Virus genome (UHGV): UHGV-0340572
Source: a virus
Length of the DNA: 16,100 bases
Strand: one strand, 5' to 3'
This document shows positions 247-16,100 of the stretch, one piece after another (positions within the stretch are counted from its first letter, which is position 1; each line of letters begins with the position of its first letter). The notes below the pieces were generated by a model that worked only from the letters and a program-made list of their open reading frames with translations, was not told the DNA's origin and ran no database searches. The position numbers and the translations under genes were made by a program.

Positions 247-735
247 ATGACCACTATTGCATGGGATGGAAAGACCCTGGCATCTGACACCCAGGCATCA
301 TCTGGTGATGTTGTGTGTTCGTATACAGAACAAAAGATTTACACACCGCCAGAATCTGGGTGGGAGGTTTGCGGCAGTAAAGTGGTTGCATTAGGTTGTT
401 CTGGTGATTGCGGCGCTGAGATGGAATTGCAGGAACTGCTTAAGAATAACCTGACGTATGCATCAGAATTTCTCCCGACATTCTCTTTCACAGCGCTTGC
501 TATCATTGGTGCTGGTCGTGCTTACATCATCTCAAAAGAGAAAGGCGAAACGCGGGCGAGTATTTCGCTACAGGTTGAACCTTACGCCATTGGTAGTGGT
601 GGGCTGATTGCTCGCACTGCCATGCACTGTGGCAAAAATGCGAGAGAAGCGGTACAAGTCGCAATTGATCTTGACTGCTATTCCGGCGGCAGTGTTGATT
701 CGTTCCCCGCTGGGAAGCAAACAGAAGGGAAATAA
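247..735 (+). CDS. proteasome beta / HslV-like N-terminal-nucleophile (Ntn) hydrolase family protein, 162 aa
   Basis: Translation begins [20 protein letters not shown], matching the Thr1...D17 N-terminal motif of proteasome beta/HslV subunits; a Lys in QKIY sits at the equivalent of HslV Lys33; C-terminal AIGSGG matches the conserved GSGG loop (HslV has AIGSGG). RBS GGAG at 237-240, 6 nt before the ATG. Comparison is from memory of E. coli HslV and proteasome beta sequences. Confidence 0.65.
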
Positions 736-4885: not shown

Positions 4886-5797
4886 ATGGACCAAACCACC
4901 GACATTCAGGCTTCTGAAGAATTAACCCTGCCCGGCAATCATGCAGCGGCATCTGCTGATGGCTTAGTTGTCGATAATGCCAACGACAACGCAGGTCAGG
5001 AAGAAGGCTTCGAGATTGTCCTGAAAGACGATGAGAAACCAAAACAAGACCCGGCAACTAATGCTGAATTTGCCCGTCGCCGCATCGAACGCAAACGCCA
5101 GCGTGAGCTTGAGCAACAGATGGAAGCGGTTAAGCGGGGAGAGTTGCCGGAGCACCTGCGGGTGAACCCTGAGTTACCAAAACAACCAGACCCTAACGAT
5201 TATCTTTCCGAAGACGCACTGGCTAAGTACGACTATGACCAGAGCCGCGCACTGGCTGCCTTCCAGCAGGCAAATAGTGAATGGCAGATCAAGGCTATGG
5301 ACGCACGAAGCCAGGCTGTCGCCGAGCAGGGTCGCAAAACTCAGGAGTTCACCCAGCAATCAGCGCAATATGTCGAGGCAGCCCGTAAGCACTACGACGC
5401 AGCGGAAAAGCTCAATATCCCTGACTATCAGGAGAAAGAGGATGCATTCATGCAACTGGTGCCGCCAGCAGTCGGTGCCGACATCATGCGCCTCTTCCCG
5501 GAGAAATCCGCTGCTCTCATGTATCACCTTGGTGCTAATCCTGAGAAAACACGCCAGTTGCTGGCGATGGACGGGCAATCCGCGCTGATTGAACTCACTC
5601 GACTGTCAGAACGTTTAACTCTCAAGCCTCGAGCCAAGCCTGTTTCAGAAGCCCCGTTACCTGATGAACCCATTCAGGGACACGCTGTTGCTGCAAATAT
5701 CTCTGCGATTGAAAAGCAGATGGAAGCGGCAGCAAACAAAGGGGATGTAGAGACGTACCGCAAGCTCAAGGCGCAACTGAATAAAGGAATTCGATAA
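4886..5797 (+). CDS. 8: scaffolding protein (P22 gp8-like), 303 aa
   Basis: 303 aa, the same length as P22 gp8; highly charged, helical composition; positioned between portal and coat; its stop overlaps the coat start (TAATG). Confidence 0.88.
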
Positions 5798-7092
5798 TGG
5801 CATTAAATGAAGGTCAACTGGTCACGTATGCTCTGGATGAAATCATCGAAACCGTCCAGAACCTGACGCCAATGGCGTCCAAAGTGACAAAATACACCCC
5901 TCCGGCAGAATCCATGCAGCGTTCAAGCAACACCGTGTGGATGCCTGTTGAGCAGGAAGCGCCAACCCAGACTGGCTGGGATTTAACTGGCAAAGCAACC
6001 GGGATTCTGGAGCTCTCCGTGAAATGCAACATGGGCGATCCGGATAACGATTTCTTCGAGCTTCGTGCAGATGACCTGCGTGATGAGCGTTCTTACCGTC
6101 GCCGCATCCAGGCATCCGCCAAAAAACTGGCGAATAACATTGAGTCAGCGATTGCCAAACAGGCAACTGAAATGGGCTCGCTTGTTGTTCACGATACCCG
6201 CGCAATTGGTCCATCTACTGGCCTGTCTGGCTGGGATTTTGTGTCTGATGCAGAGCGCCTGATGTTCTCCCGTGAGCTAAACCGCGACATGGGCATCAGT
6301 TACTTCCTGAACCCTGACGATTACCGCAAAGCAGGCCGCAATCTTGTAGATGGTGACATCTTCGGGCGCGTTCCTGAAGAAGCGTATCGCAACGGTACTA
6401 TTCAGCGTCAGATTGCTGGCTTTGATGAAATTCTTCGCTCACCGAAACTTCCGGCAGTTACCAAGTCAACCGCTACTGGTGTAACTGTTTCTGGTGCGCA
6501 GAAGTTTAAGCCCCAGGCATACACTCTTGATACCGATGGTAACAAAGAGAACGTTGACAACCGTGTTGCAACGGTGACCGTATCCTCCACCACCGGATTT
6601 AAGCGCGGCGACAAAATCAGCTTCACTGGTGTGAAATTCCTGTCTCAGATGGCGAAGAACGTGCTAACTGATGATGCGACTTTCTCAATCACCCGTGTGA
6701 TCGATAGTACTCACATCGAAATCACGCCGAAGCCGATTGCACTTGATGACGCGTCACTGACAAAAGAAGAGAAGGCTTACGCTAACGTAAACACCTCTCT
6801 TGCTGATACCACTCCGGTAAACGTTCTGAACGTGGCAACAACCACCGCTAACGTGTTCTGGGCTGATGACTCAATCCGCCTGCTGTCTCAGCCGATCCCG
6901 GTAACCCATGAACTGTTTGCTGGTATGAAAACGTCTTCCTTCAGCATTCCTGGCATTGGTGTTAACGGCATCTTCGCAACGCAGGGCGATATCAACACTC
7001 TGTCTGGTAAGTGCCGTATTGCTGTGTGGTATTCAGCATGTGCTGTACGACCAGAGGCAATTGGTGTTGGTCTGCCTAACCAGACTGCGTGA
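5797..7092 (+). CDS. 5: major coat protein (P22 gp5-like), 431 aa
   Basis: N-terminus [25 protein letters not shown] and size match P22 coat protein (about 430 aa); RBS AAAGGA upstream; followed by a strong terminator. Confidence 0.93.
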
Positions 7093-12665: not shown

Positions 12666-14662
12666 TGGCTAAAGCATGGAAAGATGTTATCGCCTCTCCA
12701 CAGTATCAGGCGTTAGCACCAGAACAAAAAGCGCAGGCTCAGGAGCAATACTTCAATGAAGTCGTTGCCCCGCAAGCCGGAGAAAATGCAGAGCGGGCTA
12801 AGCAAGCTTTCTATGCTGCCTATCCATTGCCATCTGTGCAGCCAGTGGGGACACAGCAACCAGTAGCACAGCAACAACCACAGCAAAGTGGATTCATGTC
12901 TGATCTTGGCGAAGCAGTAAAAGAGACTGGTCGCGGAATGGTGCAGGCTGGCGTGAACGTGGCAAACATACCTGCATCAGTTGCCGATGCTGTAACAAGC
13001 GCGGCGGCTTGGGCTGGCGGTAAACTCGGCATTGGCGATGGTACATATCAACCAGCACCACGAGTAACAACGCAGGGATTAGAGCAGGACTTTGGCCTTC
13101 AGCAAGGTGCGCTGACTCCACAAACGACAGAGGGAAAGGTATTTGCTGAAGCATTGCCTTACCTCACTCCTGCTGGCGTTGAGAGAGCGGCGGTACAGGC
13201 ACCAACACTTGCTGGTCGAATTGCTCAGGGGGCAACTCGCCTTCTAGCAGAAAACGCAGTTGGATCACTTGCTGCAAACAGTGCGAAAGATGATGCGGAA
13301 GCACTCGCCACCGATTTAGGCGTTGGTGTGCTGGCTGGCGGTGCTATTAACGCTGCCGGACGTGGATTAGGTGCTGCTTATCGTGGTGTTCGTGGTTCGA
13401 TAGCACCAGAAGCTCAACAGGCTATCAGGTTTGCAGAGCGTGAAGGAGTTCCTCTGCACACCACAGACCTGTTACAGCCTACTTCCCGCGTCGGGAAAAT
13501 GGCGCAGACTACAGCAGAAAATATCCCCCTGGCTGGCACAAGCGGAATGAGAGCAACGCAACAGGAAGCGAGAAGCCAGTTGGTGCAGAGATTTGCCGAT
13601 AAATTCGGTGAGTATGATCCAGCGGTTGTTATTGACAGCCTTAAAGCGAAAACATCAGGAATTCGTCGTGCCGCCGGTAATCGACTGGAGCAGGTTCAGA
13701 ATGCTATGGCTGGAGTAAACATTCAGCCTGCGCGAGCAATTCAGCAGATTGATACAGAAATATCTAATCTGCAGAAGCTTGGTAAGGTTGCTGATAACGA
13801 GACTATTTCAAAACTTCAGTCATATCGTGATGAGCTTGTTCGCAATGCTGGTCCTGATGGTCCGGTAAATCTGGATTTGAAGCAATTAAGCGATCTGCGC
13901 AGCCAGTTCAGAATGGACGTGAAGGGTGAACGACCAGTGTTACCAAACCGTTCCGATGCTGCCATTCAGCGCGTTTACAAGGCGATGACAGACGATATCA
14001 ATGGTGCCATTGGTCAGAATCTTGGCAACGATACTCTCCGTAAATATCAGCAGGCCAATGCCGTATACGCTGACGAAGCGGCGAAACTAAAGAATACCAG
14101 GCTGAAGAATGTTCTCATGAAAGGCGACCTGACGCCGGAAGTTGTCAACAACATGCTATTCAGCAAGAACAAATCGGAAATTAAGACGCTGTATAACTCA
14201 GTTGGTCGCGTTGGAAGAGCGCAAATGCGCAATGGCATCATTGGAAAGGCGATAGAGAAATCAGGTGGTTCACCTGACCAGTTCCTTCGACAGCTTAACA
14301 TCCTGCAAAACCAGACTGGCATCACATTTAAAGGTCAGGAAGCCGCTTATCTGAAAGGATTGAAAAACTACCTTCAGTCCACTCAGCAGGCAGCAAAAGC
14401 GGCAGTAACAACACCAACAGGGCAGCAAACCATCCCGTTCATTATCGGATATGGGACGGCAATGAACCCGGCGACAACTGGCGCAGCAGTAAGCTACGGA
14501 CTTCTTACTCGCGCCTATGAGAGCGAGCCATTCAGAAATGCAATGCTCCGAATGGCAAACACACCACGCGGATCAACAGCGTTTGAGAAAGTCATGCAGC
14601 AGGCGCAAAAGGCCATTAACGCCCTGACTCAGGGTGCCAAGTCTGATGCGTTGTCAGAATAG
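12665..14662 (+). CDS. 16: ejection protein gp16-like, 665 aa
   Basis: Last gene of the ejection-protein trio by synteny; Ala/Gly/Gln-rich; longer than the 609 aa I recall for P22 gp16. Confidence 0.82.
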   Translation: MAKAWKDVIASPQYQALAPEQKAQAQEQYFNEVVAPQAGENAERAKQAFYAAYPLPSVQPVGTQQPVAQQQPQQSGFMSDLGEAVKETGRGMVQAGVNVANIPASVADAVTSAAAWAGGKLGIGDGTYQPAPRVTTQGLEQDFGLQQGALTPQTTEGKVFAEALPYLTPAGVERAAVQAPTLAGRIAQGATRLLAENAVGSLAANSAKDDAEALATDLGVGVLAGGAINAAGRGLGAAYRGVRGSIAPEAQQAIRFAEREGVPLHTTDLLQPTSRVGKMAQTTAENIPLAGTSGMRATQQEARSQLVQRFADKFGEYDPAVVIDSLKAKTSGIRRAAGNRLEQVQNAMAGVNIQPARAIQQIDTEISNLQKLGKVADNETISKLQSYRDELVRNAGPDGPVNLDLKQLSDLRSQFRMDVKGERPVLPNRSDAAIQRVYKAMTDDINGAIGQNLGNDTLRKYQQANAVYADEAAKLKNTRLKNVLMKGDLTPEVVNNMLFSKNKSEIKTLYNSVGRVGRAQMRNGIIGKAIEKSGGSPDQFLRQLNILQNQTGITFKGQEAAYLKGLKNYLQSTQQAAKAAVTTPTGQQTIPFIIGYGTAMNPATTGAAVSYGLLTRAYESEPFRNAMLRMANTPRGSTAFEKVMQQAQKAINALTQGAKSDALSE

Positions 14663-14731
14663 CTTCGCAAACACCAGAAACGTGCAAAAACCAAATATGT
14701 AGAACGCAATATTCATCATATCTCTTTGCAT
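14654..14731 (-). CDS. candidate small hydrophobic peptide, 25 aa (MQRDMMNIAFYIFGFCTFLVFAKLF)
   Basis: On the - strand, 20 nt after the mnt stop: GGAGG, 4-nt spacer, ATG, then 25 codons forming one hydrophobic, transmembrane-like segment; the TGA stop overlaps the last codons of gene 16 antisense. Too short to be in the ORF track. Could equally be a deletion remnant. Confidence 0.3.
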   Translation of the reverse strand: MQRDMMNIAFYIFGFCTFLVFAKLF

Positions 14732-14751
14732 AAATCCTCCGTAATGGATGG

Positions 14752-15012
14752 TTAGTTGCTGTCTTTTTTATATAGCTCCTTGAGCGTATCAAAGACAATT
14801 TTCTTAACCATATCAGATTGTTGTTCTGCCATACGCTCTGCATCGTCAATGTAAACTGATGCAGAGCTTTGTTTATCCAATGATTCCTCAATCGCTGCAA
14901 TTATCTCTGAGTTCAGCGACCTGTTATTCATCTTCGCACGCTGCTTAATTTTCGCGTGAAGTTCATGCGGAAGTCTCAAGTGAAACTGCGCCTCGTCGTA
15001 TTTGCTGTACAT
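14752..15012 (-). CDS. mnt: Mnt-like ribbon-helix-helix repressor, 86 aa
   Basis: The track ORF (14752-15510, -) is over-extended across the tailspike start. From the internal ATG at 15012 the protein MYSKYDEAQFHLRLPHELHAKIKQRAKMNNRSLNSEIIAAIEESL...DDAERMAEQQSDMVKKIVFDTLKELYKK matches P22 Mnt as I recall it (HFNFRMPMEVREKLKFRAEANGRSMNSELLQIVQDAL...NDAERLADEQSELVKKMVFDTLKDLYKK). GAGG lies 8 nt upstream on the - strand. Confidence 0.8.
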   Translation of the reverse strand: MYSKYDEAQFHLRLPHELHAKIKQRAKMNNRSLNSEIIAAIEESLDKQSSASVYIDDAERMAEQQSDMVKKIVFDTLKELYKKDSN

Positions 15013-15147
15013 CCTTGATGCCTCACCAGTTGGGTGGAATGGCATCGTAAAACCTACTGTACAAATCAACAATCGTACCGTTTCGGTATGCAACAAACAC
15101 CAACCGTAGCCACGCTGCGGCGATTCCTTGTATCTGGAGCAAATTAA
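15013..15147. promoter_or_regulatory. divergent intergenic region between mnt and tailspike; probable promoter/operator region
   Basis: 135-bp non-coding gap between divergently oriented genes. Contains the inverted repeat TACCG-TTT-CGGTA (15076-15088), the palindromic hexamer TGTACA (15058-15063) and the imperfect 17-bp palindrome CCGTAGCCACGCTGCGG (15103-15119). I could not pick out convincing -35/-10 hexamers by eye. Confidence 0.4.
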
Positions 15148-16100
15148 ATGACAGACATTACAGCCAATGTGATTGTATCGATGCCTTCGCAACTCTTCAC
15201 TATGGCGCGTTCTTTTAAAGCTGTAGCCAATGGCAAAATTTATATCGGTAAAATTGACACTGACCCTGTAAATCCAGAAAACCAGATTCAGGTTTATGTG
15301 GAGAACGAAGACGGCTCTCACGTTCCTGTTTCGCAACCAATCATCATTAATGCTGCTGGATATCCGGTATATAACGGACAGATTGCCAAATTCGTAACTG
15401 AGCAAGGCCATTCTATGGCTGTATATGATGCGTATGGCACGCAGCAGTTCTATTTCCCTAATGTGCTGAAGTACGACCCTGATCAATTTGAGATTAGGCT
15501 TTCTAATCAAGACGGCGCTGGTCTTGTTGGGATTATGCCATATGGCACGGTACAGGATGCCATCAAATGGGTTGTCCCCGAGGTATTCCCCGGAAGTAAT
15601 GCGTCAGAAAAATTACAGGCAGCTGTAAATTATGCGGTTGCAAACAAAACGAGAGTTGTAGCATCAGGTGTGTACGATGTAACGGCCCCCGTCACCATCC
15701 CAGGAGACATCATTATCGATGCTTCTACTGGAGAATTTACCTTCAATGGCATTGATTATATTTTCCATCCGCTTGGCGCAAAATCAGTAGAGATTATCGG
15801 TGGTAAGTTCACCGCAAATGCATACCACACCCAGCGTCCTCAGGTAATTTTCAATGATTACCCTGATGGGCTGGCGAATTTGCCAACGCGAGTGGTGATA
15901 AAAGATATGCAATGCTTTAACTGCGGTGTTGGCTACATCATGGTTAACTGTCAGGACCCAACCAGCGTACATGTCTCAGTTGATAATAACTACTGCAAGA
16001 CTGATGACAACACAGATCAGTATATCTCTGATGCAGGAATGTCAGGTGAACAGGGTGAGGTATATCCATATCTGATGATTCTTGGCAACACGACTGCATC
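15148..16100 (+). CDS. 9: tailspike protein, 5' portion (truncated at window end); P22-type N-terminal head-binding domain with a different receptor-binding domain
   Basis: ATG at 15148 with GGAG 9 nt upstream. Translation MTDITANVIVSMPSQLFTMARSFKAVANGKIYIGKIDTDPVNPENQIQVY...NVLKYDPDQF matches the conserved P22-family tailspike head-binding domain. After about residue 113 the sequence (IRLSNQDGAGLVGIMPYGTVQDAIKWV...) no longer resembles P22 gp9 as I recall it. Open to the window end, so absent from the ORF track. Confidence 0.85.
   Translation, partial: MTDITANVIVSMPSQLFTMARSFKAVANGKIYIGKIDTDPVNPENQIQVYVENEDGSHVPVSQPIIINAAGYPVYNGQIAKFVTEQGHSMAVYDAYGTQQFYFPNVLKYDPDQFEIRLSNQDGAGLVGIMPYGTVQDAIKWVVPEVFPGSNASEKLQAAVNYAVANKTRVVASGVYDVTAPVTIPGDIIIDASTGEFTFNGIDYIFHPLGAKSVEIIGGKFTANAYHTQRPQVIFNDYPDGLANLPTRVVIKDMQCFNCGVGYIMVNCQDPTSVHVSVDNNYCKTDDNTDQYISDAGMSGEQGEVYPYLMILGNTTA

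Follow-up and report, generated by a model that had tools for sequence, protein, structure and literature searches.

Mnt and Arc are the textbook models of DNA reading by ribbon-helix-helix proteins. Vershon and colleagues are said to have found in 1987 that P22 Mnt does not repress Pmnt and that it reportedly helps this promoter indirectly, by silencing Pant. The interval between gene 16 and the tailspike gene has been termed the 'ant moron', and mnt is all that ST64T, ST104 and a related prophage have of it (Villafane et al., PMC2629481). P22-like phages show late-operon read-through into the tailspike gene (PMC2629481), and it was speculated that Mnt and Arc may influence this late transcription (Villafane et al., PMC2629481). 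The phage L genome paper asks whether an mnt gene without ant is a remnant or is functional (PMC8022706), and no description of operators for Mnt classes other than that of P22 was found in the open-access literature.

The window analysed here, a stretch of 16,100 nucleotides from the virus genome UHGV-0340572, corresponds to the late region of a P22-like phage or prophage (Lederbergvirus), and the record nearest to it is an E. coli prophage with 99.7% identity. Towards its right end it carries a gene for a gene 16-like ejection protein (3' end at 14662), a gene for an 86-aa Mnt-family repressor on the minus strand (14752-15012, recognised from its ORF and translation and from Pfam and PDB matches) and, on the plus strand, the 5' part of a tailspike gene (15148-16100), which codes for the head-binding domain (Pfam Head_binding PF09008, E=6e-66) and runs off the window end. 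As the preliminary description had it, the two divergent genes are separated by 135 bp (15013-15147), the mnt coding sequence reaching up to 15012 and the tailspike start codon ATG occupying 15148-15150. The ribosome-binding site of the tailspike gene is GGAG at 15136-15139, and the string CTGGAGCAAATTAAATG at this site and the start codon recurs in the tailspike leaders of P22, CUS-3 and other phages. The ORF list has neither arc nor ant in the gap.

The gap is a mosaic of a left module, from 15013 to about 15093, and a right module, from about 15103 to 15147, the two meeting at 15093-15103, where mnt control gives way to tailspike leader, as given by the boundaries of BLAST matches. When the gap was searched against phages and 5,426 complete E. 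coli genomes, its two pieces proved to be distributed independently: in many E. coli prophages the match to mnt and the gap stops at window position 15093 (query 1-342), in other E. coli prophages it starts only at 15092 or 15103 (query 341/352-396), and for many other phages, among them CUS-3, HK620, epsilon34, Sf6 and P22, the match is limited to the piece between about 15103 and the start of the tailspike gene.

The repressor encoded on the left has an Arc-like ribbon-helix-helix N-terminal domain (Arc domain PF03869, E=8e-15, residues 7-49) and an Mnt tetramerisation domain at its C-terminus (Repressor_Mnt PF11423, E=3e-14, residues 57-82), and it matches the PDB entries 1mnt (E=5e-19, residues 6-79) and 1qey (E=2e-8). 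Its beta-strand reads AQFHLRLP. The N-terminal 45 residues, QFHLRL included, are almost unchanged in relatives, overall identity goes down to about 60%, and that of the C-terminal domain falls to about 60% in relatives from other genera. A longer Mnt starting at an in-frame ATG at 15045, as annotated in Sf101, was discarded, as stop codons close that frame in relatives. The RefSeq records of P22 and Sf101 name the mnt product 'partition protein ATPase', and CUS-3 (locus L226, 1606-2001) has two tandem genes annotated as mnt, one of the SEN22 class (strand PQVNLRLP) and one of the P22 class (PHFNFRMP).

Three palindromes in the gap had been put forward as operators: TACCGTTTCGGTA (TACCG-TTT-CGGTA) at 15076-15088 and TGTACA at 15058-15063, both of which lie where they had been placed, and an imperfect 17-bp palindrome, CCGTAGCCACGCTGCGG, which is indeed present, at 15104-15120, one base to the right of the 15103-15119 given before. 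None of them stands out within the gap itself. Over 5000 shuffles of the 135 bp, the single perfect inverted repeat with arms of 5 bp and a spacer of at most 6 compares with a mean of 0.85 (P=0.50), the single perfect 6-bp palindrome with 2.0 (P=0.86), and the two 17-mers with at least 6 of 8 complementary arm positions with 0.51 (P=0.10). Any claim about these sequences must therefore rest on comparison with relatives, and this comparative evidence appears to raise only one of them above chance, as the candidate site TACC-N5-GGTA. TGTACA, which lies inside the spacer of the putative mnt promoter, reads TGGATA in the commonest relatives (type B), in Citrobacter and in Klebsiella, and ATTACG in Buttiauxella; being unconserved, it is best read as chance and was dropped as an operator candidate.

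The candidate operator, (G)TACC-N5-GGTA(T), occupies 15075-15089, with its arms within 15076-15088 and its centre at 15082, about -45 from the inferred mnt start. It was followed through 130 loci with the same Mnt N-terminal domain, which reduce to 58 different upstream haplotypes. None of the eight arm positions is changed in more than one haplotype, and positions 1 and 5 of the spacer are free to vary (G/A and C/A/T); these are the fifth arm pair of the palindrome as first proposed, G:C in the window and A:C in most relatives, so that its 4-bp arms stood and its fifth pair did not. Beyond E. coli, the arms are found again in Buttiauxella, Serratia, Citrobacter, Klebsiella aerogenes, K. pneumoniae and Rahnella, the last with the spacer TTAAC between intact arms. 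Polymorphism affects 19 of 47 aligned positions and none of the eight in the arms (hypergeometric P=0.01), an excess that is only moderately significant given the good conservation of the left module as a whole. Sf101 and JEP4 each have a single exact copy of the motif in their whole genome, at the place upstream of mnt, and TACC-N5-GGTA is the sole copy per 6-kb locus (95 loci, ≤3 kb) save for single chance matches in four. The window has a second exact TACC-N5-GGTA, TACCACTCCGGTA, at 6807-6819, inside a 431-aa ORF (5797-7092); the count expected for the whole window is 0.06, and this copy is probably due to chance, since it is absent from the Sf101 and JEP4 genomes.

The strongest argument for an operator is its positional homology with P22, which became apparent when the mnt-sense strands of three Mnt classes were aligned on the palindrome centre. 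The P22 class reads palindrome GGTCCACCGTGGACC, linker TA, -35 TTGAGA, 17 nt and -10 TATCAT, the hexamers being those of the annotated Pmnt and the palindrome the annotated Mnt operator; the phage L class reads AGACCACGGTGGTCT, TA, TTGTGG, 17 nt and TATGAT; and the window class reads ATACCGAAACGGTAC, GA, TTGTTG, 17 nt and TACGAT. From the palindrome centre to the 'TTG' of the -35 there are 10 nt in all three, and the three palindromes have the core CC-N5-GG in common. With the alignment so anchored, the window site takes the place of Omnt with a new sequence, and TACC-N5-GGTA is probably the operator of the window's Mnt-family repressor. The change of operator sequence credibly matches the altered DNA-reading strand, in which Q-H-R stands for the H-N-R of P22: the Omnt sequence given in the preliminary description, AGGTCCACGGTGGACCT, is correct, and its remark that the local palindromes differ from Omnt in step with a changed strand holds for TACC..GGTA and AQFHLRLP versus PHFNFRMP.

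The putative mnt promoter of the window thus aligned lies on the minus strand, with its -35 TTGTTG at 15072-15067 and, 17 nt away, its -10 TACGAT at 15049-15044, and its start site is predicted near 15037. These hexamers appear to be the homologue of P22 Pmnt and would act as a promoter. The match to consensus is weak (7/12), and the -35 varies around its 'TTG' (TTGTGG or TTGAGG in the phage L class, TTGTTG or TTGAGT in the window class). The commonest relatives, type B, have an mnt promoter spacer of only 15 nt.

The gap had also been described as a divergent control region from which the tailspike gene might be expressed under repressor control, independently of late-operon read-through. That the repressor's own control region lies there agrees with the alignment; the rightward half of the proposal does not. 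With P22 Pant scoring 11/12 and Pmnt 10/12 as controls, no promoter of at least 8/12 was found in the gap on either strand or on the plus strand of 14900-15160, and a scan at a threshold of 9/12 detected nothing promoter-like in the gap. Rightward candidates reach 7/12 at best and lie away from the Pant position, where the window reads CAAATC for the Pant -10 (2/6) and ATGGCA for its -35 (4/6), so that the equivalent of Pant appears to be decayed. Given neither Pant, arc and ant nor a promoter of at least 8/12, a repressor-controlled tailspike gene is unsupported for the window.

We consider it unlikely, for these reasons and because two of the three proposed operators (TGTACA and the 17-mer) are excluded, that a promoter in the gap fires toward the tailspike gene under repression by the Mnt-like protein. 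Such a promoter would fit some of the observations: the candidate operator sits where P22 Omnt sits, and P22 Omnt covers the start of the rightward promoter; the window class of Mnt is always the divergent neighbour of the tailspike gene; and in Serratia an intrinsic terminator stands between operator and tail gene, as expected if rightward transcription that is not antiterminated exists. This terminator (locus L094, about 610-650, minus strand) reads AGCCAGC-CTAACC-GCTGGCT followed by seven T, and the tail gene there is of a different type. In type B relatives, for example Sf101 (locus L096, 14571-14599), a 2-nt deletion with respect to the window shortens the mnt promoter spacer, and the same deletion creates a marginal rightward ATGGCA-17-AATACT (8/12) that ends 6 nt before the operator. 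These commonest relatives might thereby retain a weak rightward promoter controlled by Mnt, a hint that does not extend to the window, but matches of 8/12 are common by chance, the stricter threshold of 9/12 already giving 1.9 expected sites per 900 nt.

To the right of the junction, comparison leads away from any immunity function. The 17-mer is found upstream of the tailspike gene in P22 as well, after ant and t_ant and directly before gene 9, and the leader to which it belongs was annotated in CUS-3 by its depositors as 'bsq1; boundary sequence'. A scan of viral contigs for the tailspike start found this leader at more than 130 loci, its commonest upstream neighbour being the ant terminator and not mnt, and it is near-identical directly before the tailspike start whatever lies upstream, be it t_ant, either of two Mnt classes or other sequences. 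As part of a leader found with any Mnt type, P22 and CUS-3 included, the 17-mer is not the operator of the window's Mnt, for which it had been considered.

A plus-strand RNA hairpin is a better fit to the 17-mer than a protein site. The predicted stem-loop, hairpin 2, is CCGUAGC-CAC-GCUGCGG (15104-15120) in the tailspike 5' leader. Across 48 distinct leader variants, 95.8% of the 336 stem cells form standard pairs, and sliding the partner by 1-3 columns lowers the pairing to 20-68%. In four pairs only one partner varies, and pairing persists as G.U or U.G; in one pair C-G gives way to U-A in 2 sequences, and the covariation score was reached by 2 of 500 shuffles. The commonest mid-stem pair is U.G, which on the opposite strand is a C.A mismatch. 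Relatives in Rahnella and Klebsiella pneumoniae have G-C to A-U replacements, and the hairpin is predicted in the folds of all relatives carrying this type of leader. Type B loci (Sf101, IME10 and most E. coli prophages) have at the same place a non-homologous leader with a different hairpin of 9 bp, which shows one compensatory change from G-C to U-A with weak statistics.

A reasonable guess is that hairpin 2 is a processing or stabilising element of the tailspike message. As a terminator it was rejected, since no U-run follows it on the plus strand and its T-rich minus-strand tail is not kept in phage L; the terminator scan found no intrinsic terminator in 14500-15400, where hairpin 2 is followed by CGAUUCCUUGUAUC, which has no U-run. 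Rfam 15 gave no match in the gap and two matches at chance level (E=2-4) inside the mnt coding sequence. A long-range pairing that would hide the tailspike ribosome-binding site (15080-15093 with 15128-15140) was also set aside, as it appears in the minimum free energy fold of the window only, and neither in the centroid nor in relatives.

In P22 (locus L003, 4041-4065 and 4153-4178) the start of the tailspike leader is duplicated, with about 110 bp inserted between the copies that form a hairpin of their own; variants of the insert in loci L036, L112 and L133 have stems that differ by compensatory changes, and it resembles a small element that was inserted after t_ant and before the leader. 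Phage JEP4 (loci L006/L097, about 17195-17389 in record coordinates) has the leader and the start codon followed by a stop after seven codons, and its annotated tailspike begins about 180 bp further on; the short frame has the look of a vestige that remained when the tailspike module was replaced. A Rahnella locus (L222, 2341-2850) has an HNH endonuclease gene inserted between the leader region and the tailspike gene.

Another hairpin, which had escaped the preliminary description, was found in the left module. Hairpin 1 (15017-15046) is favoured on the plus strand and consists of an outer stem GATGCC/GGCATC, an inner stem (T)CACC/GGTG(G) and a 5-nt loop, and it overlaps the complement of the mnt Shine-Dalgarno sequence (CCTC, 15021-15024) and the putative mnt -10. 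The plus strand folds at -14.9 kcal/mol (z=-2.1) and the minus strand at -12.7 (z=-1.5). RNAalifold on 16 variants from two Mnt classes gave 11 pairs, 2 of them with compensatory changes; all 16 have one and the same U.G pair, which on the minus strand would read A.C. The loop is hypervariable (five variants) between constant arms, compensatory substitutions alter the inner stem in Buttiauxella and in the phage L class, and two common changes of the L class pair only as G.U on the plus strand. This pattern suggests an RNA structure that forms on the plus strand, antisense to the mnt leader, and that could serve the late transcript as an antisense or processing element. The inner stem, CACC-N5-GGTG (15024-15036), was also considered as a second operator and rejected: its spacer is 1 nt shorter in Citrobacter and Klebsiella, its arms change compensatorily in Buttiauxella and the L class while the DNA-binding domain of the protein is constant, and the repeat is part of the larger hairpin.

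Taken together, we regard it as probable that the gap joins the control region of an orphan Mnt, with an operator of new specificity, to a tailspike leader that is served by late read-through. The left module would be the control region of an orphan Mnt-family repressor and would hold the homologue of the P22 mnt promoter, with a palindromic operator abutting the -35 that replaces P22 Omnt and would match the altered DNA-reading strand; the repressor, presumably as a tetramer, would bind this single site. The partner elements of P22, Pant, arc and ant, appear to have been lost, and the site can consequently no longer control an antirepressor in the window; most likely it tunes the synthesis of the repressor itself. 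The right module would be the tailspike mRNA leader common to P22-like phages, with its conserved hairpin and ribosome-binding site. Expression of the tailspike gene is most likely by read-through from the late operon, which would run across the antisense mnt as in P22. The sequences themselves show the anatomy, the pattern of conservation, the homology of position and the borders of the modules, from which binding by the protein, activity of the promoter and the sign of any autoregulation are inferred.

Several points weigh against this mosaic reading, among them the weak promoter match, the short promoter spacer of type B and the moderate significance of the arm conservation. With Pant gone there is no obvious selective reason to keep the site, and the stable pairing of this Mnt class with the tailspike gene in every genus examined could mean that the reading leaves out a functional link. 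That an orphan repressor and its site are both kept across genera nevertheless argues that a function persists, autoregulation being its simplest reading.

Other targets might account for the retained operator: immunity in trans, in which the orphan Mnt would silence the antirepressor promoter of incoming or co-resident phages with the same operator, or a roadblock, in which the bound tetramer would set the amount of transcription that passes into the tailspike gene. That the DNA-binding domain and the site are under strong purifying selection although ant has been lost would agree with either, and an influence of Mnt and Arc on late transcription into the tailspike gene has been suggested by Villafane et al. 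(PMC2629481). We nonetheless hold this explanation to be improbable, because neither the window class of Mnt nor its operator was found beside arc or ant among about 230 loci and two whole genomes, and those phages with ant that were examined have Mnt of other classes (P22 and epsilon34; SEN22 and CUS-3).

A bolder proposal, and to our minds a doubtful one, takes the Mnt-like gene, its operator and the two plus-strand hairpins as a dedicated tailspike unit maintained as a whole across the Enterobacteriaceae for control of dosage. If it were true, bound Mnt and the hairpins would set how far a late or a stray prophage transcript is converted into tailspike, and the repressor would have been re-purposed from the control of an antirepressor to the dosage control of a virion protein.

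That nothing here is functional, mnt and the palindrome being a decaying immI remnant and the palindromes chance or historical, is an option raised by the phage L paper (PMC8022706) that would suit the absence of any palindrome above chance within the gap and the weak promoter match (7/12), but it is very unlikely in view of a gene that has stayed intact at almost every one of about 130 loci and whose N-terminal domain is almost invariant across genera, of operator arms that are conserved while the spacer drifts, and of hairpins with compensatory changes.

Under the mosaic reading, the locus is an operator-specificity variant of a known system, and it is this variant that is new, an orphan mnt beside the tailspike gene having been described already in phages L and ST64T. 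The conservation seen argues for a function of an mnt without ant, the question raised by the phage L paper (PMC8022706). For annotation, the stretch before the tailspike gene should be treated as a common mRNA leader that contains a conserved hairpin, outside any immunity operator.

The immI region of P22 resembles the locus in its protein, of the same family in both domains, and in its site between the gene 16 homologue and the tailspike gene. P22 has Pant, Oarc, arc, sar, ant and t_ant, all of which the window lacks, and the window has a hairpin-forming repeat over the 5' region of mnt that P22 lacks. The operator sequence of P22 specificity, AGGTCCACGGTGGACCT, does not occur in the gap of the window, which has GTACCGTTTCGGTAT and shares with it CC-N5-GG; the recognition strand is PHFNFRMP in P22 Mnt and AQFHLRLP in the window, and the N-terminal arm of the window protein is two residues longer than that of P22 Mnt, which gives it an Arc-like length. 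P22 Arc indeed has the same N-terminal length and register (Q9, x11, R13), with Asn at residue 11 where the window protein has His, and the Arc operator, TAGA-N5-TCTA, has 4-bp boxes and a 5-bp gap, the geometry of TACC-N5-GGTA with different box sequences. Arc is, however, a 53-residue dimer without the Mnt tetramerisation domain, which the window protein has. In CUS-3, bsq1 and the tailspike start are 97% identical to window positions 15103-15147, and the stretch before gene 9 of P22 is near-identical, but the leader follows ant and a terminator in CUS-3 and P22, whereas in the window it is fused to an mnt control region.

Closer still are the orphan mnt genes of phage L, ST64T and ST104, which, as in the window, adjoin the tailspike gene across a 135-bp gap without arc or ant. 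The layout of the L type is that of the window as well, with hairpin 1, the promoter homologue, a palindrome and the shared leader with hairpin 2. What differs is the specificity: the L class combines the strand PQFNLRLP with AGACCAC-N-GTGGTCT, whose centre base may be A, C, G or T, the window combines AQFHLRLP with TACC-N5-GGTA, and the two N-terminal domains are only about 57% identical. P22 with H-N-R, phage L with Q-N-R and the window with Q-H-R would thus make up a natural specificity series, in which three natural classes of Mnt, with different strands and different palindromes, use the same position at the promoter.
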